A stretch of DNA of 64,000 bases from a virus: IMG/VR virus record IMGVR_UViG_3300017917_000095, positions 1 to 64,000 of that record; one strand, 5' to 3'. A program made the position numbers and the translations under genes. The notes beneath the pieces are model-generated. The model saw nothing but the letters and a program-made list of their open reading frames with translations, was not told where the DNA came from and made no database searches. Positions 7,912-64,000 of this stretch are shown piece by piece; position 1 is the first letter of the stretch; each line of letters opens with the position of its first letter.

Positions 7912-7916
7912 ATACA

Positions 7917-13405: not shown

Positions 13406-13437
13406 CACTTAGGGTTAGGAAAAGGTAAAAGACGCAC

Positions 13438-13458: not shown

Positions 13459-13474
13459 CATAAGGAAAACTATT

Positions 13475-44033: not shown

Positions 44034-44186
44034 ATGAGTGAAAATTCTTCTAAAAGTCAGGAAACTACACAAGAAAAGCCCGAACCCGTGCCAAATGAGC
44101 ACGGGGGCTTTTACTTTTCTTCTTTCGTGAAGATTTTTGACCCAAACACAAAACAAGTTCTAGTACAAAAAAGAGGCGATAACTAA
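44034..44186 (+). CDS. Small 50-aa protein (missed by the ORF track), similar to the N-terminus of the next gene
   Basis: MSENSSKSQETTQEKPEPVPNEHGGFYFSSFVKIFDPNTKQVLVQKRGDN. Late promoter upstream and TAATG coupling to 44186. Confidence 0.75.
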   Translation: MSENSSKSQETTQEKPEPVPNEHGGFYFSSFVKIFDPNTKQVLVQKRGDN

Positions 44187-44806: not shown

Positions 44807-44814
44807 GATAAATA
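44807..44814 (+). promoter_or_regulatory. Late promoter GATAAATA
   Basis: Immediately after the stop of the previous gene. GGAG RBS before ATG 44838. Confidence 0.6.
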
Positions 44815-44837
44815 AGAGAATATCGGAGTGATTTGAA

Positions 44838-46058: not shown

Positions 46059-46067
46059 GGATAAGAA

Positions 46068-47018: not shown

Positions 47019-47042
47019 TTTTTAAAGTACAACTTGTATCCA

Positions 47043-47050
47043 TCTAAATA
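47043..47050 (+). promoter_or_regulatory. Late promoter TCTAAATA heading the glycosyltransferase / radical SAM operon
   Basis: 7/8 match to TATAAATA, followed by an AGGAG RBS and ATG 47067. Confidence 0.6.
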
Positions 47051-47066
47051 CTCTTAGGAGTGATCG

Positions 47067-47372
47067 ATGGATACAAAAACTTTAATAAGCGACGCCAAAG
47101 CCCGTTTTAGCCACAATGCTGCAAAAGCATACTTGAAAGAAAAGTATGAAGCACGATTAATTGTGGCTGAGCAAGGTGGTCTTTGGAGAGCTAATACTAA
47201 CACAATCAGTTTCTTAAACAGCATTCAAACCGATACAGTCGTGCTGATCGATACGTTTGAAAATCCGGTTGAAGTTAACCGTAGTGACTTGCTAGCCAAA
47301 TTAACAGAAACGTATGACACTGTTATGCGTGAATGGCTCAACGATTGGGCAGAACTAGAGAAGAAGCGATGA
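47067..47372 (+). CDS. Hypothetical protein (101 aa)
   Basis: Strong RBS and ATGA coupling to the next gene. No recognisable motif. Confidence 0.75.
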   Translation: MDTKTLISDAKARFSHNAAKAYLKEKYEARLIVAEQGGLWRANTNTISFLNSIQTDTVVLIDTFENPVEVNRSDLLAKLTETYDTVMREWLNDWAELEKKR

Positions 47373-48175
47373 GCCGAGGTGCATTACTCTTTGCATTCAA
47401 CTCCCCGAAGTACAATTACTATGAAATGGCAGAGTTTGCTGCCAAGCGTATTAATCACTTCTTGGGATTGCCTGTAACGATTGTTACAGATGAAAAGAGC
47501 TTACCTGAAAATCCAACATACAAGTTCGACAATACCATTGTCGTAGAGCCTGATAAGAACAACATCAGAGACCATGTAGTTTGGATCAATAAGGGCCGCT
47601 ATCAAGCTTATGCTCTAAGTCCGTATGACGAAACACTAGTGTTGGATACTGACTATGTTGTTAACAGTGATAAACTGTTAGCAACCTTCGACATGGCTGA
47701 GGATTTCTGCTGCCATGATAATACTAACTTCTTGATGTACCCTAAAGCACCTCAGGAAGTATTGAGTGCGTATAGCTTTAAGACATTGTGGGCTACCGTA
47801 ATCATGTTTAAAAAGACAAACAGAGCAAGGCAAATCTTTGAATGTCTAGAAATGGTACAGAAGAATTATGACCACTATGCTAATATCCATAGTTTTATTG
47901 CTGGTGTATATCGCAATGACTACGCCCTGACGCTAGCACTTAGAATTGCTAACGGCCACATCAACTACAAAGACGATATCATCCCGTGGAATCTAGTACA
48001 CGTGGGTAAGAATACCTCTGTATACAAGAACAACACTGACGAATTCGATACTGAATACACAGTGATGTATGATAATTGGCAACGTGGCAAGATTCGTAAA
48101 GAGTTTATGACAATCAAAGACATGGACTTTCACGTAATGAACAAAGACAATTTCATGGAGTTGATGAATGGATAA
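47369..48175 (+). CDS. GT-A fold glycosyltransferase (GT8-like)
   Basis: YALSPYDETLVLDTDY contains a DxD motif, plus WATV and RND. Start is ATG 47369 (ATGA overlap). Confidence 0.7.
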   Translation: MSRGALLFAFNSPKYNYYEMAEFAAKRINHFLGLPVTIVTDEKSLPENPTYKFDNTIVVEPDKNNIRDHVVWINKGRYQAYALSPYDETLVLDTDYVVNSDKLLATFDMAEDFCCHDNTNFLMYPKAPQEVLSAYSFKTLWATVIMFKKTNRARQIFECLEMVQKNYDHYANIHSFIAGVYRNDYALTLALRIANGHINYKDDIIPWNLVHVGKNTSVYKNNTDEFDTEYTVMYDNWQRGKIRKEFMTIKDMDFHVMNKDNFMELMNG

Positions 48176-48971
48176 GGGTTTTGTAATCATTTCCCAAGAT
48201 GGGGGACATGCTGATACATATCAGAAATGTTCACATGCATTGGCTAAGAGCATCAAACGCTTTATGCCAGATGCCAAAGTGTCTATCATCACAGATAACA
48301 AGGTCACTAACCCTGAGTTGTATGACAAGATCATTCCGTTACCCTACGGCGATCAAAGCCCTAAGAGTTTCTGGAAATTGAACAATGATTGGCAAGTCTA
48401 TGAAGCTAGCCCCTACGAATATACTATCAAGCTAGAAGCTGACATTTATCTTCCACGTTCTATTGAACACTGGTGGGACGCATTGAAGCATCGTGACTTG
48501 GTAATCGCTACAACTATACGTGACTTCAAGCAAGAAATTAGCCCTTCACGTGTGTATCGTAGACTCATTGACGAGAACTATCTACCTGATACATACAATG
48601 CTATCACATACTTTAAGAAGTCTGAGACAGCGGAAGAGTTCTATAAGCTTGTGCGTCACATCTTTGAGAACTGGGCTGAGTTCAGAGCTATATTGAAGTG
48701 TAGCCCATATGAAGAAGCAACGACTGATTGGGTATATGCGTTAGCTACACACATTATGGGTGTAGAGAAATGCACATTGCCAGAGTTCACTGAAATGAGC
48801 ATGATTCACATGAAACGATTGATTAACAATCTACCTACTGAGGATTGGACAGATGCATTAGTGTATGAGGTACTCCCTCACACATTAAGAATCAACTCTT
48901 GCCCACAGCTTTATCCGTTTCACTATCATATCAAGTCGTTTTCAAATAAAATACTAGAAGCCTATGTCTGA
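48168..48971 (+). CDS. GT-A fold glycosyltransferase-like protein (paralog of the previous gene; DxD appears as EAD)
   Basis: YEASPYEYTIKLEADIY, YNAITYFKKS, TTD and PFHYH motifs. Confidence 0.65.
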   Translation: MDKGFVIISQDGGHADTYQKCSHALAKSIKRFMPDAKVSIITDNKVTNPELYDKIIPLPYGDQSPKSFWKLNNDWQVYEASPYEYTIKLEADIYLPRSIEHWWDALKHRDLVIATTIRDFKQEISPSRVYRRLIDENYLPDTYNAITYFKKSETAEEFYKLVRHIFENWAEFRAILKCSPYEEATTDWVYALATHIMGVEKCTLPEFTEMSMIHMKRLINNLPTEDWTDALVYEVLPHTLRINSCPQLYPFHYHIKSFSNKILEAYV

Positions 48972-49320
48972 TACAATACAACAAGAAGATGAAGTAATCA
49001 TATATTGGGAAGCACCGAAGATCGTGCCTCCCGAGTTCCGTTTGTACTATGAAGAAGAAACCGGTAAGGTTATCTGCTATACATGCGAGAAGCCCGAAGG
49101 CAAATATCTAGTCATCGATGCAGTAACCTTTGCTCAGGCTCGTCCTGATCTTAGAGTTATTGACGGAAAGATTTCTACAGCAAGCAATCATGCGATTGTT
49201 TCTAAGCTGATGCCAAACGCTACACGTGGGCAACTATGTGAAGCTGAGGACATTAGTGTTGTTGCAACAGACGGCCCAGACACAATAAGATGGAAACTAA
49301 ACACATATGAGCTTAAATGA
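48964..49320 (+). CDS. Hypothetical protein (118 aa)
   Basis: Overlaps both neighbours. FRLYY...GKVICY pattern; function not recognised. Confidence 0.7.
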   Translation: MSDTIQQEDEVIIYWEAPKIVPPEFRLYYEEETGKVICYTCEKPEGKYLVIDAVTFAQARPDLRVIDGKISTASNHAIVSKLMPNATRGQLCEAEDISVVATDGPDTIRWKLNTYELK

Positions 49321-50260
49321 AATTGTCGATGTTGCAGACCTTGATTGCATCTATCTCAGTTACGATGAACCCCAGAAAGAAGAATTCTGGTTAAAGATCA
49401 AGAACATGGTGCCTTGGGCAAAGCGTGTTGATGGGGTCAAGGGTAGTGATGCTGCACACAAAGCAGCAGGGGAAGCATCAGACACAGAACGTTTCATTCT
49501 TATTGACGGGGACAACATGCCCGATGAATCGTTCTTCAACATGCAACTAGACTTTACTGGTAAGCCCGCTAACTATCAATTAGCGCAGTTTCGTTGGAAA
49601 GCAGTCAATGCTATCAACGGTCTACGATATGGTAACGGTGGCATGAGTTCTTGGACAAAGACTTATGTTGCTAATATGAAAACCCATGAAGCACAAACAG
49701 ACGGCGACAGTTCACGTATTGCTGACTTCTGCTTAGACAGTAAAGATAATCTATACTGGGCTATGTACGATTGCTATTCAACTACATATCCAAACATGAC
49801 TCCTTTCCAAGCATGGCGTGCAGGATTCCGTGAAGGTGTCAAGATGGTTCTAGACAAGGGTGAGAAGCCCGATGCTAACGAGTTCAAAGAACGTGTAGCA
49901 AGTCGCAATCTAAACAACTTGACTATCTGGCAGAACGTAGGAGCTGACGTTGAGAACGGCATCTGGGCTATCTACGGTGCTCGTCTTGGTACATATATGA
50001 CTATGCTTACTGAGTGGGACTGTCACAATGTTCAATGGTTCGATAACTATCCGGTACTTTGGGAAGAACACGAACTCAAAGATCCAGTTAAGCAATCAGA
50101 ATTAATCGGTGAGGCTCTAAGCGATAAATTAGGTCTACCCATGTGTACACTGAGCCCAGAACAAAGTAAGTTCTTTAAGCGTCACTATCAATCTGACTAT
50201 CATAACAAGGGCCCATTGGTCACTGAGATGGAAGTTATCCGACAAATCGAAGGATGGTAA
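49307..50260 (+). CDS. GT-A fold glycosyltransferase-like protein
   Basis: YLSYDEP, RVDGVKGSDAAHKAA, FILIDGDN (DxD), NGLRYGNGG and QAWRAGFREGVKM motifs. Confidence 0.65.
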   Translation: MSLNEIVDVADLDCIYLSYDEPQKEEFWLKIKNMVPWAKRVDGVKGSDAAHKAAGEASDTERFILIDGDNMPDESFFNMQLDFTGKPANYQLAQFRWKAVNAINGLRYGNGGMSSWTKTYVANMKTHEAQTDGDSSRIADFCLDSKDNLYWAMYDCYSTTYPNMTPFQAWRAGFREGVKMVLDKGEKPDANEFKERVASRNLNNLTIWQNVGADVENGIWAIYGARLGTYMTMLTEWDCHNVQWFDNYPVLWEEHELKDPVKQSELIGEALSDKLGLPMCTLSPEQSKFFKRHYQSDYHNKGPLVTEMEVIRQIEGW

Positions 50261-51666
50261 TGTCAGAAAGCCACGAACAAAAACGAATCAAAGATATCAA
50301 GATCAGAGTCGAAAACGAAGCTGGTCCAACGTTCTGCCTTGCTAAATGGCATCACGTTACTATGTACTTGCAAAGCGGTGAGACACACAGTTGTTATCAC
50401 CCACAGCCACATAAGATTCCATTAGAAGAACTCTATGACAATCCTAGCGCATTGCACAATACACAGCAGAAGAAAGAAGAACGCAAGCTAATGCTAGACG
50501 GTGGCAAGCCCACAGGCTGTCAGTATTGCTGGAACATTGAAGCTATGGGTCCTGACTATATCAGTGACCGTCACATTCGTAACGCTAGTATCTTCACAGA
50601 AGAACGTTATGAACAGACAGCTAAAGGCCCGTGGAATCAGAACATTAACCCTGAGTATATTGAAATCAACTTCGGTAACGAATGCAATTTCAAGTGCGGT
50701 TATTGTCATCCAAAGTACAGCACAAGCTTCTACAAAGAGATTGAGCAGAACGGTCCTGTCACAACTGTAAAGAATCATCGTTGCGACATTGACTGGATGC
50801 GTTTATATCAGCGTGAAGATGATAACCCATACGTAGATGCATTCTGGGAATGGTGGCCAGAGATGCGTAAGACATTGAACATCTTACGTGTTACAGGTGG
50901 CGAACCCACGTTGCATAGAAGTACATGGACATTGCTAGAGAAGATCGACCAAGATCCAATGCCCTGGTTAGAACTAAACATCAATAGCAATCTAGGAACA
51001 AAGCCTATTCTTATTGAACGTTTAGCTGAGAAAGTCAAAAAGCTTACTGACGAGGGTAAGATCAAGAGTTTCAAGCTATTTACTAGCTTAGACACATGGG
51101 GCCCACGTGCTGAGTATATTCGTACAGGCCTAGACTTAGAACTATGGGAACAGAACTTCCATACATACCTAAAGGGTACAGATAGCCCAATCACGTTTAT
51201 GATTACGTTCAATATCTTCTCCGTAACTACGTTCAAAAGCTTCCTAGAGAAGTTCATTGAATGGCGTAAGATTTACGGATGGTATGACGATCCTGTAAAC
51301 CCACAGCATCGTGTGCGTTTTGACACACCTTATCTACGTGACCCTATTCAGTACGATATGAACATTCTTCCCAAAGAAGAATTCATGCCCTATATGTATG
51401 AAGCACTAGCATACATGAAGGAAAACACTGACGACAAGCGCAGTGATGCCTTCAGCAGTATTGAATATGAGAAGTTCAAGCGTGTAGTTGATTACATGGC
51501 TGAAACAAACTACCCGGAAGAGAAACTAATCGAAGGTCGCAGAGACTTCTACAATTGGTTCAATGAATTAGACGAGCGCCGCGACACAGACATGCTAAGT
51601 GTGTTCCCTGAGTACCTAAGCTTCTACCGTTTGTGTCAAGAAGCTAATCAACTCAACCCACTATGA
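50260..51666 (+). CDS. Radical SAM enzyme with an N-terminal twitch/SPASM-like domain
   Basis: CNFKCGYC and TGGEP in the core. N-terminal FCLAKW..SCYHP..GCQYC. Start is ATG 50260 (TAATG) or 50254. Confidence 0.88.
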   Translation: MSESHEQKRIKDIKIRVENEAGPTFCLAKWHHVTMYLQSGETHSCYHPQPHKIPLEELYDNPSALHNTQQKKEERKLMLDGGKPTGCQYCWNIEAMGPDYISDRHIRNASIFTEERYEQTAKGPWNQNINPEYIEINFGNECNFKCGYCHPKYSTSFYKEIEQNGPVTTVKNHRCDIDWMRLYQREDDNPYVDAFWEWWPEMRKTLNILRVTGGEPTLHRSTWTLLEKIDQDPMPWLELNINSNLGTKPILIERLAEKVKKLTDEGKIKSFKLFTSLDTWGPRAEYIRTGLDLELWEQNFHTYLKGTDSPITFMITFNIFSVTTFKSFLEKFIEWRKIYGWYDDPVNPQHRVRFDTPYLRDPIQYDMNILPKEEFMPYMYEALAYMKENTDDKRSDAFSSIEYEKFKRVVDYMAETNYPEEKLIEGRRDFYNWFNELDERRDTDMLSVFPEYLSFYRLCQEANQLNPL

Positions 51667-52895
51667 ACTCAGACAAGGAGCATAACTTAACAAAAAACAA
51701 ATCGTTCTGTATGCTTCCATGGGTTCATTTGCATATCACCCCTACGGGGCTAACTGCTCCGTGCTGTATAGCAACAACAGAGTCCGATCCTGAAATTGAT
51801 AATATCAATGGAAAGACTATTCAATCGGCAGTAAACTCTGATAAGATGAATACTATTCGAAAGAATATGTTAAAAGGTGTATTGAGTAAAGAATGCACAA
51901 CTTGTCACGTGCATGAACAACAGAATGTTCATAGTACAAGGCAAGTTATGAATAAAGACCTATCAGCTTATTATGATTCAACCGTACCAAATACTAATAG
52001 TGACGGCTCATTAGACGACTTTAAAATGCATTATTTCGATATCCGATTCAGTAATATTTGCAATTTCAAATGTCGCACATGCGGTCCGGACTACAGTAGT
52101 CAATGGGGAATAGAAAAGAATAAGCCAAAAGTCATACATATTGACAATGGTAAGGGTAAAATACTAGAAGAAGTAATTGCACAAGTACCCAATATTAAAA
52201 TAGCGTACTTTGCGGGAGGGGAACCCTTGATTACCGAAGAGCATTATGTTATACTAGAAGAAATGATACGTACAGGTGCCGCCAAAGACATTCAATTAAA
52301 GTATAACACAAACGCCAGCAATCTCAAGTATAAAGACAAGGATTTACTGTCACTCTGGAAACATTTTGATAAGGGTGTGATTGTCGATGCTAGTATAGAT
52401 CATTATGGTACTAGAGCCGAATATATTCGTCACGGGACTAACTGGGCTACAGTTGAAGAAAACATTAAACTCTTACGTACATTGCCTCATGTCTCACTGA
52501 GAATGAACACAGTATTGAGTGTTTTCAATGTATTGACTATCGGTGACTTCTATGAGTATCTAATATCTAACGACCTGTACAATAACAAGGATATGGGATA
52601 TCTAGTGTATAACATGATAAGCCCTGCTTACTTAGCATGTCATATACTTCCCCCTGAGTATAAGACTATTAGTAGAGATAGCATTATGCGAGCCATATCA
52701 TTGTTGGTAACGAACAAGTTTAATATGTCAAGAATAGTGCAACTGAGACATGCCTATACATGGTCAAAGACTTATGACACGTGGGATACGCATAAGGATG
52801 AATTTAAGAGTGAAATCAACAGACTTGATGCACTACGTAATGAAGATTTTAGAAAAACGTTTCCTGAATTAGCAGGATTATTGGATTTAGAATGA
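51663..52895 (+). CDS. Radical SAM enzyme with an N-terminal twitch/SPASM-like domain
   Basis: FCMLPW..PCC..ECTTC, then CNFKCRTC, AGGEP, YNTN and ASID. Confidence 0.9.
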   Translation: MNSDKEHNLTKNKSFCMLPWVHLHITPTGLTAPCCIATTESDPEIDNINGKTIQSAVNSDKMNTIRKNMLKGVLSKECTTCHVHEQQNVHSTRQVMNKDLSAYYDSTVPNTNSDGSLDDFKMHYFDIRFSNICNFKCRTCGPDYSSQWGIEKNKPKVIHIDNGKGKILEEVIAQVPNIKIAYFAGGEPLITEEHYVILEEMIRTGAAKDIQLKYNTNASNLKYKDKDLLSLWKHFDKGVIVDASIDHYGTRAEYIRHGTNWATVEENIKLLRTLPHVSLRMNTVLSVFNVLTIGDFYEYLISNDLYNNKDMGYLVYNMISPAYLACHILPPEYKTISRDSIMRAISLLVTNKFNMSRIVQLRHAYTWSKTYDTWDTHKDEFKSEINRLDALRNEDFRKTFPELAGLLDLE

Positions 52896-54121
52896 ACAAA
52901 GATTATCTATTAAACGAAAGCAAGACGTTCTGCATGTTCCCGTGGGTTCACTTGAATGTAACGCCCAAAGGGGATATCTATCCTTGCTGTAGTAATGACT
53001 ACACAAAGCCCTATGGAAACACTAAGGAAATCTCACTTAAGGACGCATTCAACGGCCCTAAGATGAAAGAACTTAGATTGGACATGCTAAACGAGCGCAA
53101 GAATGAACTATGCAAGTTCTGTTATCAGCATGAAGAAGCAGGGCCACATAGCTTCCGTAACTATAGCAAAGAGCATTTCGGCAAGTACTTTGATGAAGTC
53201 GTACCCACTACACAAGAAGACGGAACCGTAGAAGAATTTAAGATGCGTTATTTCGATATTCGCTTTAGCAATATCTGTAACTTTAAATGCCGTACATGTG
53301 GGTCAGAATTCTCTAGTCAGTGGGGACTAGAAATGAACAAGAATTACGACAAGAATCACCCAATTGTTATTCACGTAGATGACGGACAGGGCAAAGTATT
53401 AGAAGAAGTACTTGAGCAAGTAGAACACATTGACCTAGCTTATTTCGCTGGTGGCGAGCCATTAATCACGGAAGAACATTACGTGATGCTAGAAGAAATG
53501 ATTCGCAAAGGCCGCACAGACATTACGTTGCGCTATAATACTAACGCTAGTAATATCAAGTACAAGAACCACGATGTACTAGACTTGTGGAAGCATTTCA
53601 AGAAGGTCGAACTATCTTGCAGCATAGATCATTACGGTGAACGTGCTGAACTATTACGTGCCGGAACTGATTGGGGCAAAGTCGAATCTAACTTACTGAC
53701 ATTCCGTGACTTAGATTATGTAAGCTTCCAAATGAACACTGTGTTCAGTATATTCAACTATTTGACTATCGGAGAGTTCTATCAGTACTTGAAAGACAAG
53801 AATATTGTTAGAAAAGAAGACTGGTATCATAGCTTATATCTAGCGGTGCATCCATTATATTACAGTGCTAAATCATTGCCCAAAGAATTAAAGATTGAGG
53901 CAGCAGAAAAAGCACTTAAATGGGCTGAAGCAAATAATAATGACCACACTTGCATCCCGCGTTTAGTAGTAGATGCAGTGAATTTTGCTAAAGACGGAGA
54001 CAGTTGGAGCGAAGTTCGCACACAGTTCTTGGGTCATACCAAATCATTAGATCGTATCAGAGATGAAAGTTTCTGGAAAACGTTCCCTGAATTAAATAAA
54101 TTATCTGAATTGTTGGAGTAA
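52892..54121 (+). CDS. Radical SAM enzyme with an N-terminal twitch/SPASM-like domain
   Basis: FCMFPW..PCC..LCKFC, then CNFKCRTC, AGGEP and YNTN. Confidence 0.9.
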   Translation: MNKDYLLNESKTFCMFPWVHLNVTPKGDIYPCCSNDYTKPYGNTKEISLKDAFNGPKMKELRLDMLNERKNELCKFCYQHEEAGPHSFRNYSKEHFGKYFDEVVPTTQEDGTVEEFKMRYFDIRFSNICNFKCRTCGSEFSSQWGLEMNKNYDKNHPIVIHVDDGQGKVLEEVLEQVEHIDLAYFAGGEPLITEEHYVMLEEMIRKGRTDITLRYNTNASNIKYKNHDVLDLWKHFKKVELSCSIDHYGERAELLRAGTDWGKVESNLLTFRDLDYVSFQMNTVFSIFNYLTIGEFYQYLKDKNIVRKEDWYHSLYLAVHPLYYSAKSLPKELKIEAAEKALKWAEANNNDHTCIPRLVVDAVNFAKDGDSWSEVRTQFLGHTKSLDRIRDESFWKTFPELNKLSELLE

Positions 54122-54123
54122 TC

Positions 54124-55395
54124 ATGGATAAAGTTACAGTAGAGAGCCTGGTAAAGCACGGCAAGCATTTTTGCGTGTTGCCCTGGGTTCATTTTCACAG
54201 TTGGCCAGATGGCCGTGTTATGCCTTGTTGTATTGCAGACAGCAATATGCCCGTAGCCGATTTAAAGAACGGCGAGTCTATCATCAATATGATGAACAGT
54301 GAGGACTATAAAAAGCTACGTAAGGCAATGATGAATGACGAGCCCGTTGAAGCTTGTAAGCGTTGCTATGACCTAGAACTAATGGGTACATGGACAATGC
54401 GTCAAAGTCACAACAAGCGCAAAGGTCTAGAATATGTAGACTATATTGCAGATAGTACATTAGATGATGGAAGCTTAATTGACTTTGAAATGAAGTACAT
54501 GGACTTGCGTTTTAGCAATATATGTAACATGAAATGTCGCAGTTGCGGTCCAGGCTGCTCAAGCTTATGGGCACAAGAATTTGTTGACCGTGTAGGTGTA
54601 GACACATACAAGAAGTATTTCCACACGACCAAAGTAGTTGTCAACGAAGCAGAAGAAATGGACTTTATGAACAAATTAAAGCCATATCTCAAAGACGTTA
54701 CAGAAGTATATTTCGCTGGTGGCGAGATTGTTATTACTCCTGAGCACTATGAATGCTTAGACTACTGGATCGAAAATGGAATCAACGAAACAATTGAGTT
54801 GACTTATACAACAAACTTCAGCACATTGAAGGGCTATAAGGACAATGACTTGATTGAATATTGGAAGAAATTCCCTAATCTGAAGATTTGGGCGTCACTC
54901 GATGCACACGGTGACGTTGCTGAATGTATCAGAAAGGGTACAGATTGGGATCGTATTGTTAAAAATATCAAGTTAGTTAAAGAGCAAGTTCCTCATGCTG
55001 AATTTCAGATTACTCCAACCATCAGCATTTGGAACGTGTTCACATTCCCTGACTTCTTTGACTATATGGTTAACGAAGGGTTTATTGATACTAAGAGTAG
55101 CCCACGCTTCAACTTAGCAACTAATCCATGGTATGCTAACATTATGATCCTACCCGTTAGTGTCAAGCGCAGACTAGCAGAATTGTACCGTGTCTATCAG
55201 AATAGATACAAAGACAACATCGATATCTATAACGGATTTAAGATGATTATCTACAATTTAACAGTAGGCGACGAGAACAAAGAGGGTATTTTAGAGTTCA
55301 TTAAATTCAACGAAGAATTAGATGTACATCGTAAAGAGAAATTAGAGGAAGTAATTCCAGAACTTAAAGAGGTGTTTGATTGGGCAAGAAACTAA
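54124..55395 (+). CDS. Radical SAM enzyme with an N-terminal twitch/SPASM-like domain
   Basis: FCVLPW..PCC..ACKRC, then CNMKCRSC, AGGE, YTTN and ASLD. Confidence 0.9.
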   Translation: MDKVTVESLVKHGKHFCVLPWVHFHSWPDGRVMPCCIADSNMPVADLKNGESIINMMNSEDYKKLRKAMMNDEPVEACKRCYDLELMGTWTMRQSHNKRKGLEYVDYIADSTLDDGSLIDFEMKYMDLRFSNICNMKCRSCGPGCSSLWAQEFVDRVGVDTYKKYFHTTKVVVNEAEEMDFMNKLKPYLKDVTEVYFAGGEIVITPEHYECLDYWIENGINETIELTYTTNFSTLKGYKDNDLIEYWKKFPNLKIWASLDAHGDVAECIRKGTDWDRIVKNIKLVKEQVPHAEFQITPTISIWNVFTFPDFFDYMVNEGFIDTKSSPRFNLATNPWYANIMILPVSVKRRLAELYRVYQNRYKDNIDIYNGFKMIIYNLTVGDENKEGILEFIKFNEELDVHRKEKLEEVIPELKEVFDWARN

Positions 55396-56372: not shown

Positions 56373-57681
56373 CGATACACCTATTAAGATAGTGTACAAC
56401 TGGATTGGGCCTAGAGGCCCTATCATTAATACGGAGTTACCAAACATATTGAGCTTTGCTAACGTAAGCGAAGCCGCGTCAGTCAACAGTACAAGATTCT
56501 GGGCTGATGATATCTATTGGCGTGTATTCATGCACAACGGTAACTATCCTATCAGTCCTGCATACACTGTCAGTGATAAGGATGCGTTTGTTTATCCCTA
56601 TACACTAGCTTGGAGAACACAGTTTCATAATTACTTCTTAAATGATGGGGGAATTATGGAATTTAGCCACACCCCTAATCATATTATACATCAAGTCAGA
56701 CACCACAATGGTTTCTTTTTAATTGACTATAGTCCTGAGGCATGGGTGCAAGACAATCAATTGCAAGTCATGCACAGTTATTTCAGTCATTTCAACGATA
56801 TTCCAATTGGTAAAGTGATATACATCACAGGCTGTATGAATGCACAAGAGATATATGACAACTGGTGTGATCGTAACGGTATTCCAGATGATCCTATGCA
56901 TCGTATGATAATGGTTCCGTTCCCTATCAGTCAACATGCTATCTCATGTCAGTTAGATCAAGTAGAAGAACCTGTATACGATGAGAATCACTTGCCAGAA
57001 AAGCTTTTCCTATGCTGGAATAGACGTTTCCGTCCACATCGCACACAGTTAGCACTTGCACTAGATAAAGCAGGGTTAGTAGATCGTAGCTATTATAGCA
57101 TGAACCTAGTAGACCCAGAGATGAACAGTCTACATTTTAAGAATACAGTAGACATATATCACAACCCAATGCTAGGATTGACAAGTCAAGACGCAGAACA
57201 GTTTATCAATAAGCTTCCTCTAGTGATTGACGGGGAAAGCGATATTATGCGTATGTGTGGAGACTTTGACCGTGCAGCAAAAGACTTCTATGCCAATAGC
57301 TTAGTGTCAATTATTACTGAGACTAATTTTGAATTGTCTGAGTTAACTGCTACAGAAAAGACATGGAAGCCTGCTAAAGAAAAGCACCCGTTTATCATGG
57401 TTGGAACAGCAGGTGCATTGCGTACATTACAAGAGTTTGGCTTTCAAACCTTTGATGAATTCTGGGACGAATCATATGATGATATAGAAGATCCTAGACA
57501 ACGTATGCACAAGATTATTCAAGTGTGTAAAGATATCGGATCTTGGACTCCTGAACAAGTACTTGACTTCAAGCGTAGAGTAAAGCCTATACTAGAGCAT
57601 AACTACAAGATGTTGCACACCAATACTGCTAAACGTGTAGCAGATAAAATTAGAAAAGAAATGGCAAAGAGGACAAGATGA
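56359..57681 (+). CDS. GT10 (alpha-1,3-fucosyltransferase)-like glycosyltransferase
   Basis: FLCWNRR.RPHR, then SIITET...TEKTWKP..HPFIMVG..L..GFQTF..FWDESYD, which resembles the GT10 EN..Y.TEK motif. Confidence 0.55.
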   Translation: MEINDDTPIKIVYNWIGPRGPIINTELPNILSFANVSEAASVNSTRFWADDIYWRVFMHNGNYPISPAYTVSDKDAFVYPYTLAWRTQFHNYFLNDGGIMEFSHTPNHIIHQVRHHNGFFLIDYSPEAWVQDNQLQVMHSYFSHFNDIPIGKVIYITGCMNAQEIYDNWCDRNGIPDDPMHRMIMVPFPISQHAISCQLDQVEEPVYDENHLPEKLFLCWNRRFRPHRTQLALALDKAGLVDRSYYSMNLVDPEMNSLHFKNTVDIYHNPMLGLTSQDAEQFINKLPLVIDGESDIMRMCGDFDRAAKDFYANSLVSIITETNFELSELTATEKTWKPAKEKHPFIMVGTAGALRTLQEFGFQTFDEFWDESYDDIEDPRQRMHKIIQVCKDIGSWTPEQVLDFKRRVKPILEHNYKMLHTNTAKRVADKIRKEMAKRTR

Positions 57682-58655
57682 AAAAGATATTAGTCTGTGG
57701 AGCAGGTGGATTCATTGGATCCCACTTAGTCAAGAAATTAAAACAAGATGGTCACTATGTAATTGGGGTAGATTTAAAAGCCCCGTTGTACGAGAATTCT
57801 GTAGCTGATGAATTCCATTTAATGGACTTACGTGACCAACGTAGAGTCAGTAAGTTAATTAACGGAACAATTGACGAGATTTATCAATTGGCCGCTGACA
57901 TGGGTGGCGCAGGGTATATTTTTACGGGTGAACACGATGCTGATATCATGCATAATTCAGCAATGATTAACTTAAACATCCTGGATGAAATGCGTACTAA
58001 AGGCGTGAAGAAGATTTTCTACAGTAGTTCAGCATGTATGTACCCAAGTCATAATCAAGAGGATCCTGACAATCCGTTACTTACAGAAGATAGCGCATAC
58101 CCTGCAAACCCAGACAGTGAGTATGGATGGGAGAAACTATTCAGTGAACGTCTATACATGAGTTATGCTAGAAACTACGGCTTTGATGTACGTATAGCAC
58201 GTTTCCACAATGTATTCGGACCCTATGGTTCATGGAATAATGGCAAAGAGAAAGCACCCGCGGCTCTTTGCAGAAAAGTAGCAACTGTCGAGCCCGGCGG
58301 AACAATAGATATATGGGGTCCGGGCACACAAACTCGCAGCTTCTTATACATTGATGAATGTATAGAGGGTATGCAACGTTTGATGGATAGCGACTTCACG
58401 GGCCCGGTAAATCTGGGCAGTGAACGCATGATTTCAATAAACAATCTAGTATTCTTGATCGGTCGTCTAGTAGACAAGAATGTGTGCATACGTAACGTAG
58501 ACGGTCCAATGGGTGTCATGGGTCGTAACAGTGACAACAATCTTATCAGAGAAAAGCTAGGCTGGGCTCCGCAAGAGAACTTAGAAGATGGCTTGATTAA
58601 GACATACAATTGGATTGTTGAACAAATAGAACAAGGTAAATCGGATGAGAAATGA
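57678..58655 (+). CDS. GDP-mannose 3,5-epimerase-like NAD-dependent epimerase (extended SDR)
   Basis: GAGGFIG, YQLAADMGGAGYI, SSACMYP, YGWEK, RFHNVFGP.G.W.NGKEKAPAALCRKV, QTRSFLYIDEC and GVMGRNSDN are all characteristic of the GME subfamily. Confidence 0.88.
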   Translation: MKKILVCGAGGFIGSHLVKKLKQDGHYVIGVDLKAPLYENSVADEFHLMDLRDQRRVSKLINGTIDEIYQLAADMGGAGYIFTGEHDADIMHNSAMINLNILDEMRTKGVKKIFYSSSACMYPSHNQEDPDNPLLTEDSAYPANPDSEYGWEKLFSERLYMSYARNYGFDVRIARFHNVFGPYGSWNNGKEKAPAALCRKVATVEPGGTIDIWGPGTQTRSFLYIDECIEGMQRLMDSDFTGPVNLGSERMISINNLVFLIGRLVDKNVCIRNVDGPMGVMGRNSDNNLIREKLGWAPQENLEDGLIKTYNWIVEQIEQGKSDEK

Positions 58656-59734
58656 CAAGAGCCTACATCCTTCAGATTTACCCCAAGCACACTCCTGAAT
58701 ATTACATACCAATAATCCAAGATATCAAAGACAAGAACCCTGACAAAATTCTAATATTTTCGTTGGGGGAAATCACAGTAGAATATATCTATGAATTTCT
58801 GTTCAGAGATATACAGAGTTGGCTAATTGAGAATAACAAGTATCTCCATGTTTTATGGGCCGGCCCCGACATGGAGATAAGCCCGCATATACTAGGTGTC
58901 AACACAATAGGATCAGCGTTTGGAAATGTGTCAAACGTATATGCATTGAAAGAGCAGTACGGGGAACCCGATCTGTCTACATGTACCAAGTTGTTCACAT
59001 CATACAATAACAATGCCAAGTTCGAACGCAAATACTTTGTAGACTTGTGTGCAGAGTTTGATCTAATTAAAGATGGTGTTGTCACGTACAGATATCCTAA
59101 TTTAAAAGTAGTCCCTAATTATGAATGGAAATATCATGATGGCTCTGTATTATTTGACGAGCCTAATTTTGATTTAGGAGCAAGTACATCCACTCCGGGC
59201 AGCTTACCCACTCGCTATTTCGAGGGGTTTATTGACATAGTATGTGAAACAGATAGCAGAAACGGCTTTTACATACCTACTGAAAAGACAGCTAAACCAT
59301 TGGGTGCAATGAAGCCGTTCTTAGTTATCAGTAGTATGCACTATCACAAGTTCCTATATGAAGAATACGGCATAGAAATGTACGAGGAATTGTTTGACTA
59401 TACTTTTGACAACGAACCTGATCTTAGAAAGCGCATACAAGGTGTAGTTCGAAACTTAGTTAGACTACGCAATAAGTTCAATAAGAACCCAGAACTAAGA
59501 CAAGAGATATATGAGTCAATAAAGCCCAAATTGTTACGCAACAGAGAAATGGCTTTAAATACACTTCATACATTGCGTAGTAAAAACAAATTGATACCAG
59601 ACTGCTTGAAATTCATAACAGAAGAAGCTGATTACGAATTATTGGGTGAGACAGTAAATGACGGTGGTGGAAAGCATTTTTACACAGATAAAGCATGGCA
59701 CCTAGACTCTAGGTTTTATTGGGAAAAGAAATGA
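58652..59734 (+). CDS. GT10-like glycosyltransferase
   Basis: LFTSYNN..KFER and DIVCETD...PTEKTAKP...KPFLV..YEELFDYTFD motifs. Confidence 0.55.
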   Translation: MTRAYILQIYPKHTPEYYIPIIQDIKDKNPDKILIFSLGEITVEYIYEFLFRDIQSWLIENNKYLHVLWAGPDMEISPHILGVNTIGSAFGNVSNVYALKEQYGEPDLSTCTKLFTSYNNNAKFERKYFVDLCAEFDLIKDGVVTYRYPNLKVVPNYEWKYHDGSVLFDEPNFDLGASTSTPGSLPTRYFEGFIDIVCETDSRNGFYIPTEKTAKPLGAMKPFLVISSMHYHKFLYEEYGIEMYEELFDYTFDNEPDLRKRIQGVVRNLVRLRNKFNKNPELRQEIYESIKPKLLRNREMALNTLHTLRSKNKLIPDCLKFITEEADYELLGETVNDGGGKHFYTDKAWHLDSRFYWEKK

Positions 59735-60618
59735 CGAAAAAGAAATACATTGTAGGATTAGGCTGTAGTTGGACACAAGGCGAAGGTGGATATCCTGAAC
59801 ACATCTGGAATCAACACAACGGCCGTGTACAATTGCGCGGAGTCCCTGACGAACATCTGCGTGTATACGAGCATGAAAACAGTTGGGTCAATGTACTATG
59901 TAAAGAACACTTCCCAGACTATACTCCCATGAACTTAGGAGCACGTGGCATAGGAAATAATGCTGCGGTGCATCAATTGCATTTCTGTGATAGAATCGAT
60001 TGGGATAACAGTGAGGGTTATATTGTATTACTGTTGAGTGGCTTTGAGCGTTATGACTTCTTCCATCAGACTCCTCGCTATAAGAACAATCACGATGACG
60101 GTTACAGCAACGGGGAATATACACACTATAAGTGGCGCACAGCATGGCCTATTGCAGGGGAAGGTGGCGAAGAAGAACCCCTGTGGGCGACATACGGGAA
60201 AATGCTATGGAGCGAACAGTTTCAAGCAAGTAGTCAACTCATGGCCCTGTTAGACTTACAAACATTTGCAAAGGCACATGGGTTTAAAGTCATAGTAGCA
60301 AACGCATTTAACCAATATCCCAAGAATAATGGCGTAGACGGTGTAATTAGCTATATCGCACAAAACACGGGCAAGATGGCTACGAAATTCGATTGGTCTA
60401 CGTACTTACATTCACGTGTAGACTATACAGCAATGGTGCAAAGACTTGTTGAACTAGATGGACTCATGAACCCAAAAGACTGGGGAGGACATTACGAGTT
60501 CTATCAGAAGAGGGCATGGCCAGCTAAATATCTTACTAACTGTATCCATCCGACGGTTGAGGGATACAAGTTCATTGCTAAAGAACTAGCACAGTTTATA
60601 AAGACATACCATGCATAA
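59731..60618 (+). CDS. SGNH/GDSL-fold hydrolase or acyltransferase
   Basis: Block I GLGCSWTQG, block II NLGARGIGN and C-terminal CIHPTVEGY. Start probably ATG 59731 (ATGA overlap). Confidence 0.7.
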   Translation: MTKKKYIVGLGCSWTQGEGGYPEHIWNQHNGRVQLRGVPDEHLRVYEHENSWVNVLCKEHFPDYTPMNLGARGIGNNAAVHQLHFCDRIDWDNSEGYIVLLLSGFERYDFFHQTPRYKNNHDDGYSNGEYTHYKWRTAWPIAGEGGEEEPLWATYGKMLWSEQFQASSQLMALLDLQTFAKAHGFKVIVANAFNQYPKNNGVDGVISYIAQNTGKMATKFDWSTYLHSRVDYTAMVQRLVELDGLMNPKDWGGHYEFYQKRAWPAKYLTNCIHPTVEGYKFIAKELAQFIKTYHA

Positions 60619-62542
60619 GAAGAAAAAGATCAGTTTCGTTAGTCCTAATTTTCAGCAAGGCCCGAAAGAATTAAACGCCTTCTATTTACCATATAGCACG
60701 GGCGTATTATGGGCATACGTCAATCAATTTCCTATTGTACAAGACAACTATGAATTAGGGGAATTTATTTGGCGCAGAGAAGAAATCAGTGACGTTGTAG
60801 AACAATTAAAAGACAGCGATGTTGTCTGTTTCAGTTGTTATGTATGGAATCGTAGCTATACCAAAGAGCTTGGAAAAGCATTGAAATTAGCTAATCCAAA
60901 CGTATTCATGATCGGTGGCGGCCCCGAATTTCCTATTGAAAAAGAAGATATCTTTGAACGTTATAGTTTCCTAGATATCTGTGTTAAGCTTGAGGGTGAA
61001 AAGACTTTCCGTCGCATACTAGAAGAACATGTACAAGAAACACCTGACTATAAATCAATCGCAGGCATGCTATTGAACGAGAACGGCAAGCCTTTTAATA
61101 CAGGTGACACTGTTCGTATTGACGACTTAGACACGATCCCAAGTCCTTATTTGACAGGCGTGTTTGACAAGCTTATGGCTAAGTTCCCCGAGATACGTTG
61201 GAACGGTACACTAGAAACTAACCGTGGTTGCCCTTATGCATGTACATTCTGTGACTGGGGTTCACTAACATATAACAAAGTAAAGATATTCGACCTAGAA
61301 CGTGTGTTCGATGAACTAGAATGGATGGGTTCACATAACTTTGACTTTATCAGTATCACAGACGCAAACTTTGGTATCTTTGCCGAACGTGATAGCATGA
61401 TTGCTGATAAGCTTATTGAAGTACAAAAGAAGTATGGTAACCCACGTGCATACACAATCGCATGGGCAAAGAATCAAAAGAAAGAAGTTGTCGATATTGT
61501 TAAGAAATTGATTTATGAGGGTGGCAGTAAGCTTGGCCTCAACCTATCAGTACAGACAATGGACGAGAACACACTAGAGATTATCAAGCGTAAGAACCTA
61601 GATACAAACAAAATTGAAGATGTGTTTGCACTATGCGAAGAAAACAATATCCCATTGTACACTGAATTAATTCTAGGGTTGCCGGGTGAGACATTAAACA
61701 GTTGGAAAGAAAACTTCTCCAGACTCTATAAAGCAGGCAATCACACAGGTATTACTGTATATCAGGCACAATTGCTTGAGAACGCTGAAATGAGTTTGAC
61801 ACAGCGTAAGATGTATAAGCTAGAAGGTAGTATGGTATATGACTATCTAGCCGGCTCATATAACGAATATAATCTACAAGAGGGTGTTGAGATTGTTGTT
61901 TCAACACGTGACTTGCCACCTGAGAAGATGTTGCAAGCACAATTATACAGTTGGTTTCAGAATACATTCCACATTAATGGAATTACTAATTACATTAGCC
62001 GATTACTATACAAGAAATACGGTGTTGAATACAGAGATTTCTACGATAAGCTTTACACATATGTTGAAAAAGACCCATGGTATAAGTCTGAGATTGACAG
62101 AATTACCGAACACTATAAACACTGGGGAACACGTGGAAAGATTCATCATGATCTAGTTGAGGGTATGGAGATTCACGGTTGGAACTTGATTCACAGTACA
62201 ATCATTATCCTACAGAGTCAGGCTAAGCATAGTCATACCTTTGAATTGATTGAAGATTTCATGCGTAAAGAATACCCATTGGAAGAGTCATTGCATCAAG
62301 ACTTAATGAAGTTACAGCGTAACTATCTAATTGACTATACACAAGCACAAAGCTATCCTAAGACCTTAGAGTTCAAGCATGATATCTTTGGGTATTTGCA
62401 GGACCAGAATGAATTAGAAGTTCCTTCTGTCTATGAATATGAGTTCCCGGAAGATAAAGATATGTCATTGCAAAAGTTCTGTGAACAAATCTTCTTTGCA
62501 AGACGTAGAAACTTCGGTAAAGCCTGGGTCGCTAGAAAATGA
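60611..62542 (+). CDS. Cobalamin-binding (class B) radical SAM enzyme, probable methyltransferase
   Basis: N-terminal B12-binding domain (LPYSTG, FSCYVWN, GGPE, EGE), then ETNRGCPYACTFCDW, DANFG and ELILGLPGET. Confidence 0.88.
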   Translation: MHKKKKISFVSPNFQQGPKELNAFYLPYSTGVLWAYVNQFPIVQDNYELGEFIWRREEISDVVEQLKDSDVVCFSCYVWNRSYTKELGKALKLANPNVFMIGGGPEFPIEKEDIFERYSFLDICVKLEGEKTFRRILEEHVQETPDYKSIAGMLLNENGKPFNTGDTVRIDDLDTIPSPYLTGVFDKLMAKFPEIRWNGTLETNRGCPYACTFCDWGSLTYNKVKIFDLERVFDELEWMGSHNFDFISITDANFGIFAERDSMIADKLIEVQKKYGNPRAYTIAWAKNQKKEVVDIVKKLIYEGGSKLGLNLSVQTMDENTLEIIKRKNLDTNKIEDVFALCEENNIPLYTELILGLPGETLNSWKENFSRLYKAGNHTGITVYQAQLLENAEMSLTQRKMYKLEGSMVYDYLAGSYNEYNLQEGVEIVVSTRDLPPEKMLQAQLYSWFQNTFHINGITNYISRLLYKKYGVEYRDFYDKLYTYVEKDPWYKSEIDRITEHYKHWGTRGKIHHDLVEGMEIHGWNLIHSTIIILQSQAKHSHTFELIEDFMRKEYPLEESLHQDLMKLQRNYLIDYTQAQSYPKTLEFKHDIFGYLQDQNELEVPSVYEYEFPEDKDMSLQKFCEQIFFARRRNFGKAWVARK

Positions 62543-64000
62543 AAATATGGCACAGTATAGTAGAGAGTGAATTTAATAGCGACGGGTTATTAGCTATACT
62601 TGATGATGCTGTTAGTAAAAACGCATCTGAAGTTGTATTACTTGCTGAGACAGAATGGCAAACGCCCGGTGTTTATGATGCTATCGTTAATAGATACAAC
62701 GAAAAGAATATTAAACTAACCATTGTCTATTGTTCTGTTCATAGTCCGTACTATGAGAAATTCGCTAGTGATTCTAAATTACCTAGCGAGAATATTCACT
62801 ACTGGCCTACATACTGGTTGTCCTGGAGTCTTGAGAACCTAACAAGCACATATACATATCAGAATAATACAGTCGATCCTAGCAAATTCAAATACCCTTT
62901 TATCTCATTGAATAACCGTAGCCATTTGCATCGTTGTGTATTCATTGACGAGATGGCTAAACAGGATTTGATTGATCGTGGAGTTGTCACGTGGGTAAAG
63001 CATTTGAGCGAGAATCCAGACTACCCATACAAACACTTTGATAACCGTCAGTTGACATTGAATGATGACTTCGAGAACAAATTGGATTCGTTTATGTTGC
63101 CCAATGAGTTCAATGAATCACTGTTTCACATGGTTACCGAAGCTACGCATCTTACTGGGTTTATATCTGAAAAGACAGCTATCCCATTGTTCATGAAGAA
63201 GCCGTTTATTGTACTGTCTGCACCCCACTATCAAAAGCATTTAGACGATCTAGGATTCTTGCGCTATGACGAAATTATCGACTATAGCTATGATGATATA
63301 GAGGATTTAGAGTTACGCACCGAGAAATTTGTAGCCAATATTCATAGATTCAAAGATATGAATTTAGCAGAGGTCTATGAATTATTGCGTGAAAAGATAG
63401 AATACAATCACAATCGTGCAATAGAACTGACAAAGGATCTTAGCTATATCCCTGAGCCTATACGTGAACGCTATCAACATGTACAGACAAATGGTGTCGA
63501 ATTCTTAACTGACCGTAGATATATCAAGTTCGTGAATCAAGCATCTAACCCTATAGTCTATCATATATGGGATGATCGCTTGCCTAGAGTCATTGAGAAG
63601 TTAGATACTACGTTACATGGCATAGAACACATAATTCTCAATGCTGCTATCGAATACAATTACGGTGTTATCGGTGGCAGAAAAGAATTAATGGATAAGC
63701 TTATCCAGTTGACAGATTCTGCTGGAATAAAACTTGATGTCATAACGGGAACATGCGATACCTATAATTTAATTGACACTAATATACATAAGCATGTCAG
63801 TGTATATTACTGGCCCACGTTCTGGTTAACAATGCTATTGATGCGTTTGTCAGTTAGTCCCAACTATCAGATGAATATGGCAGTTGGGCTAGATGTATTC
63901 AAGATACGTGTAAATGAAAACACTCCGTTAAAGTATCCATATATCTCTATGAACAAGGCCCCAAAGCTTCACAGGGCAATGCTGATGGACATGCTTGCTA
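62539..64000 (+). CDS. Tandem two-domain GT10-like glycosyltransferase (runs off the window)
   Basis: Not in the ORF track because it has no stop in the window. Manual translation gives MKIWHSIVES..., with YWPTYWL..KYPFISLNNRSHLHR..VTEAT..FISEKTAIP..KPFI..DYSYD, then a second copy YWPTFWL..KYPYISMNKAPKLHR. Confidence 0.7.
   Translation, partial: MKIWHSIVESEFNSDGLLAILDDAVSKNASEVVLLAETEWQTPGVYDAIVNRYNEKNIKLTIVYCSVHSPYYEKFASDSKLPSENIHYWPTYWLSWSLENLTSTYTYQNNTVDPSKFKYPFISLNNRSHLHRCVFIDEMAKQDLIDRGVVTWVKHLSENPDYPYKHFDNRQLTLNDDFENKLDSFMLPNEFNESLFHMVTEATHLTGFISEKTAIPLFMKKPFIVLSAPHYQKHLDDLGFLRYDEIIDYSYDDIEDLELRTEKFVANIHRFKDMNLAEVYELLREKIEYNHNRAIELTKDLSYIPEPIRERYQHVQTNGVEFLTDRRYIKFVNQASNPIVYHIWDDRLPRVIEKLDTTLHGIEHIILNAAIEYNYGVIGGRKELMDKLIQLTDSAGIKLDVITGTCDTYNLIDTNIHKHVSVYYWPTFWLTMLLMRLSVSPNYQMNMAVGLDVFKIRVNENTPLKYPYISMNKAPKLHRAMLMDMLA

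Follow-up and report, generated by a model that had tools for sequence, protein, structure and literature searches.

A hypervariable island of radical SAM and glycosyltransferase-like genes beside the fibre genes of a freshwater jumbo phage: a probable glycan pathway

The stretch of DNA considered here, referred to as the window, comprises the first 64 kb (64,000 nucleotides) of an 84,897-bp viral contig, IMGVR_UViG_3300017917_000095, from an uncultured freshwater jumbo phage of ~350 kb whose genome is estimated to be ~15% complete. Its right end is occupied by a run of 16 plus-strand open reading frames (ORFs; 47067-64000), dominated by radical S-adenosylmethionine (SAM) and glycosyltransferase-like genes, and this run and its continuation on the contig are the subject of this report. 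Each junction in the run is either an overlap or a 2-nt gap (in order, -4, -8, -8, -14, -7, -4, -4, +2, -16, -14, -4, -4, -16, -8 and -4 nt), the start of the second ORF most likely being the ATG at 47369, which creates an ATGA overlap. An earlier note on this DNA had described 16 tightly coupled genes up to the window end, and both the ORF calls and the junction distances bear this out. The run does not stop there, however, but continues for another 11.8 kb to contig position 75789, so that the full cluster holds 23 genes in ~29 kb and is bordered on its right by the gene of a 2313-aa repeat protein.

The first five genes constitute a conserved head. They encode a 101-aa core protein (47067-47372), found in 79 of 80 related loci at a median identity of 62%; a 268-aa core protein (47369-48175), present in all 80, and its 267-aa core paralog (48168-48971); a 118-aa core protein (48964-49320), also found in 80 of 80 loci (median identity, 55%); and a 317-aa core protein (49307-50260) that forms the left border of a variable island. 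The paralogy of the 268- and 267-aa proteins is apparent from profile alignment (hhalign, 97.9%, E = 3.4e-13), and each maintains a pair of invariant acidic residues, namely D93 and D95 within an LLDTDY motif in 20 sequences of the former, and E90 and D92 in seven sequences of the latter, which also belongs to phrog_1903. Their nearest Pfam-bearing Atlas clusters carry PF03407 or PF01501 (Glyco_transf_8) with a score of 0.96, a lead only. The 317-aa protein is 78-94% identical across the 80 loci and 41% identical to its counterpart in Ralstonia phage RsoM2USA. All free enzymes share its D67-G68-D69 motif without change, the copies within the giant repeat protein lack it, and one Atlas cluster of the 317-aa protein has been automatically named GT2-like.

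Database searches with these head proteins were largely silent. The 268- and 267-aa proteins matched no Pfam family at E <= 10 and nothing in NCBIfam or the PDB, and their alignment by hhalign to the Escherichia coli GT8 enzymes WaaJ and WaaO and to the DGD protein, from very shallow alignments, likewise gave no match. Profile searches of the PDB with all three proteins, including a more diverse alignment of the 317-aa protein, returned chance matches only (S20, CD2AP and BamA appeared among the searches with these proteins and with family X, below), and Pfam, PHROGs and NCBIfam held nothing usable for any of the five head proteins or for two SGNH-like proteins of the cluster (ORF 59719 and a 272-aa protein). 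An AlphaFold2 (AF2) model of the 317-aa protein reached a pLDDT of just 53.9, too low to be of use, owing to the shallow alignment available, which consisted of 19 sequences of 78-94% identity. Thus, the three GT-A glycosyltransferase labels given in the earlier note keep their conserved DxD-type motifs and language-model neighbours and gain no match to a Pfam, NCBIfam or PDB family. On these motifs and neighbours the three proteins are probable GT-A enzymes, the 268-aa protein being of the GT8/PF03407-like type and the invariant DGD marking the 317-aa protein as a possible GT-A.

Directly after the head, five radical SAM genes lie in succession. Four of them (50254-51666, 51663-52895, 52892-54121 and 54124-55395, all on the plus strand) are paralogs with an N-terminal twitch domain and score 313, 368, 373 and 362 bits, respectively, against NCBIfam NF033640 (N_Twi_rSAM), for which the curated cut-off is a whole-protein score of 170 bits. 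The first is divergent and has an ortholog of 36% identity in RsoM2USA, and the second is an extra cassette not found in the nearest relatives. In the NF033640 paralogs, the Pfam SPASM match (residues 14-82) is N-terminal to Radical_SAM (124-290), as in the third (409 aa), where these domains cover residues 14-77 and 124-278; ten paralogs share the invariant twitch residues C14, C32, C74 and C77, followed by C129, C133, C136 and G187-G188-E189. The fifth gene (55380-56372, plus strand) scores only 30 bits against NF033640 and is not a member; its product contains Radical_SAM at residues 21-135, with CxxxCxxC at 25-32, and a C-terminal Cys-rich tail that is SPASM/twitch-like. The earlier count of five radical SAM genes is therefore correct, with four belonging to NF033640 and the fifth distinguished by its tail.

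BtrN, the butirosin 2-deoxy-scyllo-inosamine dehydrogenase, is the founding twitch radical SAM enzyme. Among solved structures, the N-terminal twitch domain finds its best match (E = 2e-8) in the C-terminal twitch domain of BtrN, and the radical SAM core in viperin (3e-5). The likeness to BtrN thus consists of the auxiliary-cluster twitch domain, together with the sugar-like substrate of BtrN; the twitch domain is C-terminal in BtrN and N-terminal here, however, and the cores are not close. As for NF033640, the four ORFs above its cut-off display the four-Cys twitch ahead of a CxxxCxxC core, but are arranged here as tandem paralog arrays inside a sugar pathway, a setting that suggests a class of substrate. 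As far as literature searches reached, no assayed N-terminal-twitch (NF033640) enzyme was found. The cluster additionally encodes two B12-dependent enzymes of the radical SAM superfamily. ORF 60611-62542 (plus strand) contains a B12-binding domain followed by a radical SAM core (PF02310 and PF04055), in keeping with its earlier label, and is of the KedN5-like C-methyltransferase type, its 256 bits against NF033712 lying below the 700-bit cut-off of that family. The second, a 754-aa protein with the same two Pfam domains, starts at contig position 68578.

The dominant transferase of the cluster is an unnamed family, referred to here as family X. Its domain occurs in seven copies in six proteins of the contig. 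Within the window these are, by paralogy, a 440-aa protein with one domain (56359-57681), a 360-aa protein (58652-59734) and a 686-aa protein with two domains that begins at 62539 and runs past position 64000 to contig position 64599, all on the plus strand. The family is mostly viral and large: clustering at 50% identity in a library of 1.8 billion proteins gives at least 13,875 clusters. Pfam has no model for it, 47 of its members show no recurring Pfam family, and a profile search of the PDB revealed no solved relative by sequence, only chance matches. The fold is instead apparent from an AF2 model (pLDDT 93.9, pTM 0.92) with two Rossmann-like domains. Each of the 50 best-ranked matches listed for it (Foldseek, VIA) is either a GT-B-fold enzyme or an unannotated protein, the 50 that Foldseek listed from the PDB being GT-B-fold enzymes throughout, and VIA Z scores across the best-ranked matches listed are 8.8-11.3 over 223-272 residues. 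The model thus identifies family X as glycosyltransferase-like with a confidently predicted GT-B fold, from which the fold of the 440- and 360-aa proteins is taken.

Beyond the fold, the earlier designation of these proteins as GT10-like did not hold. Family X shares the two-Rossmann-domain GT-B architecture of both T4 beta-glucosyltransferase (BGT) and the GT10 alpha-1,3-fucosyltransferases, and its invariant motifs, E-x9-E-K and N-x6-R, recall the donor-binding motifs of GT10. However, it has no sequence-profile match to GT10 or other Pfam families, and the GT10 model PF00852 finds nothing across the whole 84.9-kb contig at E <= 10. In structure, the Z scores of GT10 enzymes (9.4 for Helicobacter pylori FucT, 2nzw; 9.3 for FUT9; 9.1 for FUT11) fall below that of T4 BGT (11.3) and are tied with those of many other GT-B enzymes. 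A glycosyltransferase-like GT-B fold is accordingly as far as the assignment extends. Among the structures of BFVD, family X has its close relatives in proteins of uncultured aquatic Caudovirales, all uncharacterised and in one case fused to an NDP-sugar dehydrogenase, and a tblastn search of cultured phages with family X gave no match. A single family X match was found in 301 sampled Bacteroidota genomes (L105, G084:C2:1180415-1181131), where it is broken by one TGA and one TAG codon.

In structure, family X scores highest against the beta- and alpha-glucosyltransferases of T4, at Z = 11.3 and 9.8, and viral glycosyltransferases reportedly attach a variety of glycans to DNA (Pyle 2024, cited in PMC12619734). 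The cluster could accordingly serve DNA hypermodification, with the glycan built on modified genome bases, an alternative that the earlier note had raised. The margin in Z over ordinary GT-B enzymes is less than 2, however, and the genes lie among fibre genes rather than replication genes. Additionally, each of four complete or nearly complete relatives has one gene of the thymidylate synthase (TS) family, at 345-360 bits to the family model, of which the copy tested against NCBIfam (that of G004) passes the thymidylate synthase equivalog cut-offs. None of these relatives has a TET/JBP match above cut-off, the genome in the window being itself only ~15% complete. The ordinary thymidylate synthase and the lack of TET/JBP in complete relatives weaken the DNA alternative, and it is regarded as highly improbable. 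RsoM2USA (W01) has, besides a strong TS-family match, a second and weak one (7739-8398; 85 bits) that could be a nucleotide hydroxymethylase; no second TS-family copy occurs in the four freshwater relatives.

The remaining enzymes of the cluster are principally those of sugar metabolism. ORF 57678-58655 (plus strand) encodes a GDP-mannose 3,5-epimerase (GME), as previously labelled: residues 3-322 match the Arabidopsis thaliana enzyme (2c59) over its full length with 342.6 bits (E = 2.2e-101), far above other short-chain sugar enzymes of the SDR type, the next family being UDP-glucuronate decarboxylase at 101.6 bits (1e-28). A 299-aa protein (59719-60618, plus strand) is a putative acyl esterase or transferase from its SGNH-like GCS and HP..G.Y motifs; its SGNH label draws on these motifs and finds no profile match. 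Beyond the window, a second SGNH-like ORF of 272 aa has the same GCS and HP..G.Y motifs, and there are also a 1039-aa protein in which an NDP-sugar dehydrogenase, a family X domain and a methyltransferase are fused; a 606-aa protein that joins a cupin/Asp-Arg-hydroxylase-like domain to a family X domain; a 324-aa protein whose C-terminal GGxFHC motif is typical of amidinotransferases (Pfam ADI match, E = 0.15); and a NodU-type carbamoyltransferase. A DegT-type aminotransferase (contig 70839-71441; L001:8839-9441) is only 200 aa long in a family of ~360-390 aa. Forms of 194-196 aa with 65-67% identity are found in two complete relatives, which argues that this one is not a recent truncation.

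Because it combines GME, an NDP-sugar dehydrogenase, a DegT-type aminotransferase, a carbamoyltransferase, two B12 radical SAM enzymes, seven GT-B domains and a BtrN-like twitch domain, the cluster reads as a sugar pathway with radical tailoring, and its chemistry is very probably that of nucleotide sugars and glycans. Several of these components, namely the BtrN-type twitch, the B12 radical SAM C-methylases, the DegT enzyme, the GGxFHC amidinotransferase-like protein and the carbamoyltransferase, resemble the toolbox of aminoglycoside biosynthesis, such that the product could be a soluble aminoglycoside-like pseudo-oligosaccharide, a small molecule for competition or host manipulation. But the cluster holds no cyclitol synthase, exporter or self-resistance gene, its transferase domains, of which there are at least ten, exceed what a small molecule needs, it is placed inside a structural module, and the island is hypervariable between near-identical phages. 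A product of this kind is considered quite improbable.

The 2313-aa protein at the right border (contig 75790-82731; L001:13790-L002:4731) is composed of ~23 tandem units of ~68 aa. The unit, FDFSWxPDP..YIYxFG..GGPxY, resembles the segment that follows the DGD motif of the 317-aa core protein, and the C-terminal end of the giant protein is a copy of the domain encoded at 49307 in which DGD is replaced by FAK. The protein has no Pfam or PHROG match, and its length varies from 1234 to 2313 aa in relatives. A single-domain family X gene (340 aa, contig 82728-83750) lies 3' of it. All four complete relatives have the giant protein next to the island, and most characterised SPASM/twitch enzymes act on peptides, which together raise the prospect that the twitch-first paralogs crosslink or epimerise a phage protein, either these FDFSWxPDP repeats or the fibres, and that the sugar enzymes are separate. 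Such protein-directed radical chemistry is rated improbable. The nearest solved relative of the twitch domain, BtrN, is a sugar/cyclitol enzyme and that of the core, viperin, a nucleotide enzyme; neither a RiPP recognition element nor a leader-like ORF turned up; and the count of radical SAM genes, from 2 to 14, bears no relation to how long the repeat protein is. Moreover, five such genes are present in Vibrio phage K566, where the ~31 kb around them gave no match to the repeat protein.

Comparison with relatives divides the locus into constant and exchangeable parts. In 80 related loci, the genes corresponding to 44186-50260 are present at 55-90% median identity, whereas from 50254 onward the best matches fall to 30-40% or vanish, everything after 50254 being a cassette-swapping island. 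In the four complete or nearly complete relatives of ~350 kb, an island of 7-25 kb always lies between the orthologs of the 317-aa protein and the giant repeat protein, and NF033640 genes number from two to 14 per island, in tandem. The ORFs in relatives' islands that lack a counterpart here are likewise of sugar-tailoring kinds, namely an NDP-hexose C-methyltransferase (Methyltransf_13/14), an SDR epimerase/dehydratase, SAM methyltransferases and additional radical SAM/SPASM enzymes. The nearest relatives, with 92% identity in the 317-aa protein, retain the gene order and lack ORF 51663: in L003, L016 and L006, paralog 1 is followed directly by paralog 3, and the best identity of ORF 51663 to any relative is 54%. 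This implies that cassettes are gained one at a time.

In the synteny comparison that the earlier note had proposed, the GT-A-like trio comes after the fibre genes both in RsoM2USA and in every one of the 80 related loci. Among 50,697 cultured phage records, the head module is found only in this Ralstonia phage, where the homologs of ORFs 47369, 48168 and 49307 (33-41% identity), the single twitch-first radical SAM enzyme (36%) and a second, short 49307-like gene are all annotated as hypothetical. A megablast search of the same records with the 17-kb run gave no match. In metagenomes the lineage is very abundant, with more than 8000 homologs of the 317-aa protein in a protein collection and 392 IMG/VR contigs that encode it, of which four are complete or nearly complete (335-364 kb).

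The genes upstream of the island are of T4 type and include those for a tape-measure/lysin protein, gp46/47-like nuclease subunits, a baseplate hub, a gp55-like late sigma factor (12444-13388; E = 7.6e-71) and a gp6-like wedge protein that is 32-34% identical to its counterparts in jumbo myophages of the Rak2/GAP32/Atu_ph07 type. Directly 5' of the run are three conserved, Ser/Thr/Asn/Gly-rich genes of fibre type (44186-47018, plus strand), with 64-94% identity in complete relatives, whose products are candidate acceptors; one of these genes (44838-46058) encodes a Peptidase_G2 intramolecular-chaperone domain. The earlier statement that the run adjoins Ser/Thr/Asn-rich fibre genes agrees with this arrangement, the upstream genes being fibre-like and 24-36% Ser/Thr/Asn. 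Between the wedge and fibre genes lies an ORF of 6529 aa (24428-44017, plus strand), of which Ser, Thr and Asn make up 27%; it has one FG-GAP repeat match and just 41-71% identity among relatives. Its 2541-aa homolog in RsoM2USA is a virion protein by mass spectrometry (PMC8504454). An intrinsic terminator at 44085-44105 (plus strand; 7-bp stem with six G-C pairs and a T-rich tail), the sole convincing one in the region, is situated just 3' of this giant ORF and 5' of the fibre genes.

Transcription of the run presumably begins at a late-promoter-like box, CTAAATA (47044-47050, plus strand), located 17 nt before the first start codon. The T4 late-promoter consensus is TATAAATA. The MTAAATA class, which includes CTAAATA, is depleted in the window (15 sites as opposed to 28.4 expected), and at least nine of the 15 sites fall in short spacers or gene junctions just 5' of coding sequences that include baseplate, virion and fibre genes. 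This distribution, along with the encoded gp55-like sigma factor, makes for a credible T4-type late promoter class. By itself, the exact 8-mer TCTAAATA, which occurs once in the window, is not above chance; the late motif of the earlier note is upheld as a member of the MTAAATA class. Further plus-strand boxes of MTAAATA type at 74178, 83762 and 84508 delimit transcription units, and a scan for sigma-70-like promoters and terminators inside the run revealed none above chance level. From these signals we infer that the run is transcribed late. A near-palindromic pair of ATAAATA sites (13440, minus strand; 13450, plus strand) occupies the spacer at 13389-13474 between the divergent gp55-like sigma gene and a virion gene, an arrangement that would place the late sigma factor under its own type of promoter.

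The cluster contains no part that would be expected to reside in a membrane. Over all 25 cluster proteins, the highest 19-residue Kyte-Doolittle mean is 1.42 and none attains 1.6, and the lack of any segment of transmembrane strength means that a flippase, polymerase, ligase, ABC exporter and polyprenyl-phosphate primer are all missing. Consistent with this, no Pfam family of Wzx/Wzy- or ABC-type flippases, polymerases, transporters or priming transferases was found in the cluster proteins. These absences bear on a serious rival, remodelling of the host envelope, according to which the O-chain of lipopolysaccharide (LPS), the capsule or another surface glycan is altered so as to block superinfection or the re-adsorption of progeny to debris. 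Hypervariability of this sort mirrors that of bacterial O-antigen loci, and O-antigen glycosyltransferases are peripheral rather than integral membrane proteins. The same ingredients and the same hypervariability also characterise a published island, the host recognition cluster (HRC) of pelagi- and cyanomyophages (PMC7029224). Against a host-envelope target, however, stand the missing transporter, flippase, polymerase, ligase and priming transferase; a late-type promoter inside a structural module, which would act late for exclusion; and the conservation of the GT-A-like trio, at 55-94% identity in many phages and 33-41% in the Ralstonia phage, which fits a conserved phage acceptor better. 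Serious as it is, this rival is on balance unlikely.

What the locus presents is an operon of recognisable enzyme families with a core-plus-variable architecture and no membrane components. The constant GT-A-like head and swappable body, the fixed flanks, the late-type promoter among structural genes and the lack of membrane or export parts favour a cytoplasmic, phage-encoded acceptor, and the conservation of the first five genes in phages whose hosts must differ favours one that is common to the phages. The preferred explanation, held tentatively, is thus a phage-encoded and purely cytoplasmic pathway of the late module that makes a glycan and decorates it, on an acceptor that is most likely a structural protein. 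Host NDP-sugars such as GDP-mannose and UDP-glucose would serve as starting substrates and would be converted by GME, the NDP-sugar dehydrogenase, the aminotransferase, the amidinotransferase-like enzyme, the carbamoyltransferase, the methyltransferases and the B12 radical SAM C-methylases. The twitch-first radical SAM paralogs may abstract hydrogen atoms from sugars, leading to oxidation, epimerisation or deoxygenation. A constant inner glycan could then be laid down by the three conserved GT-A-like enzymes and a strain-specific outer glycan built by the changing set of family X GT-B transferases. The acceptor would most likely be a structural protein of the adjacent fibre/baseplate-distal module, giving each phage strain a "serotype" of its own. 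The step order, the radical SAM substrates and, most of all, the acceptor are inferences. Of the earlier reading, both the sugar pathway with radical tailoring and its place in a fibre/baseplate late module behind a late-type box stand, while the virion target stands as a proposal.

Several points weigh against a structural-protein acceptor. The glycan, glycoprotein and transcript are each a prediction from the genes, and the GT-A labels, drawn from motifs and language-model neighbours, are unproven. GT-B enzymes of O-antigen pathways are likewise soluble, and a host could supply the export machinery. The best structural neighbour of family X is, moreover, a DNA glucosyltransferase of T4. The authors of the pelagimyophage HRC study prefer modification of the host O-chain (PMC7029224), and the virion proteomics of RsoM2USA was limited to ten major bands (PMC8504454). 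A broader proposition, that the tailed phages of this freshwater lineage bear a strain-specific, cytoplasm-built glycan coat on their fibre/baseplate-distal proteins, edited on its sugars by as many as 14 twitch-first radical SAM enzymes and varied by cassette exchange between fixed flanks in the manner of O-antigen loci, so that phages would have their own serotypes and NF033640 would be a new class of radical carbohydrate-editing enzymes, is somewhat less likely.

The closest analogue among known systems is the HRC (Zaragoza-Solas et al. 2020, PMC7029224), for which a host-surface (O-chain) target was proposed; islands of glycan genes within the fibre module have already been published in outline for aquatic T4-like phages. 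Like the present locus, the HRC is a large hypervariable island in the structural module of aquatic T4-like myophages that joins fibres with glycan genes, and the shared contents include glycosyltransferases (of GT8 type in the HRC), UDP-glucose dehydrogenase, Asp/Asn hydroxylase-like genes and radical SAM cassettes whose presence varies from one close relative to the next. It is situated between VrlC and the neck gene gp14, whereas the island described here follows the gp6-like wedge gene, the 6529-aa ORF and the three fibre-type genes. The present lineage also differs as a jumbo one of ~350 kb near RsoM2USA and the Rak2/GAP32 group, in the fixed borders of its island (a five-gene head and a giant repeat protein), and in having an unnamed GT-B family as its dominant transferase and radical SAM enzymes in NF033640 arrays of up to 14. 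The HRC paper does not contain an enzyme-level analysis (PMC7029224).

Virion glycosylation by viral enzymes provides a second point of comparison, and, as in mycobacteriophages and Mimivirus, the virus would bring its own transferases and sugar-nucleotide enzymes. Mycobacteriophages reportedly carry glycans on their capsids and tail tubes (Freeman et al. 2023, cited in PMC12619734). Their glycosylation genes adjoin structural genes, and the fibril glycosylation clusters of Mimivirus differ between clades. The present island is far larger than those of mycobacteriophages, and we know of no report of radical SAM, B12, amidino or carbamoyl chemistry in mycobacteriophage systems. If the glycan is indeed borne by the virion, this would be the most elaborate bacteriophage protein-glycosylation system known and a phage counterpart of bacterial O-antigen diversity, with a bearing on host recognition, on escape from defences and grazers, and on how aquatic hypervariable islands are read. 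Whatever the target, nucleotide-sugar/glycan chemistry gives NF033640 and GT-B family X a first functional context. To the published outline the window adds the 29-kb extent of the island and its borders, the GT-B fold of the seven-copy family, the confirmation of GME, the link between the N-terminal domain and the BtrN twitch, the gain of ORF 51663 as a single cassette, the degenerate 49307 domain that ends the giant protein and the negative results for a DNA route. RsoM2USA is in culture, and its minimal version of the locus (ORF346-354, with two GT-A-like proteins, a DGD protein, a single twitch-first radical SAM enzyme and another protein with the DGD domain) makes the question directly testable.

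Literature searches combining jumbo phage, radical SAM and glycosyltransferase returned nothing; a "moraphage" paper (PMC12619734) that came under consideration concerns another lineage. Twitch-first-like radical SAM genes also occur, five in number and in another context, in Vibrio phages K566 and K567. In K566 (L104, OZ196521.1; 255 kb), the five are found at 161.5-179 kb, within ~17 kb, and BLAST revealed no family X or 49307-type genes near them. A scan of genome contigs with a twitch radical SAM enzyme produced a sole match, a 1.7-kb phage fragment in a Flavobacteriaceae metagenome-assembled genome (MAG). This contig (L097, CBFHVY010000169.1) holds an 81%-identical copy of the radical SAM gene at 52892, and represents a phage fragment binned in error or else a weak hint of the host.

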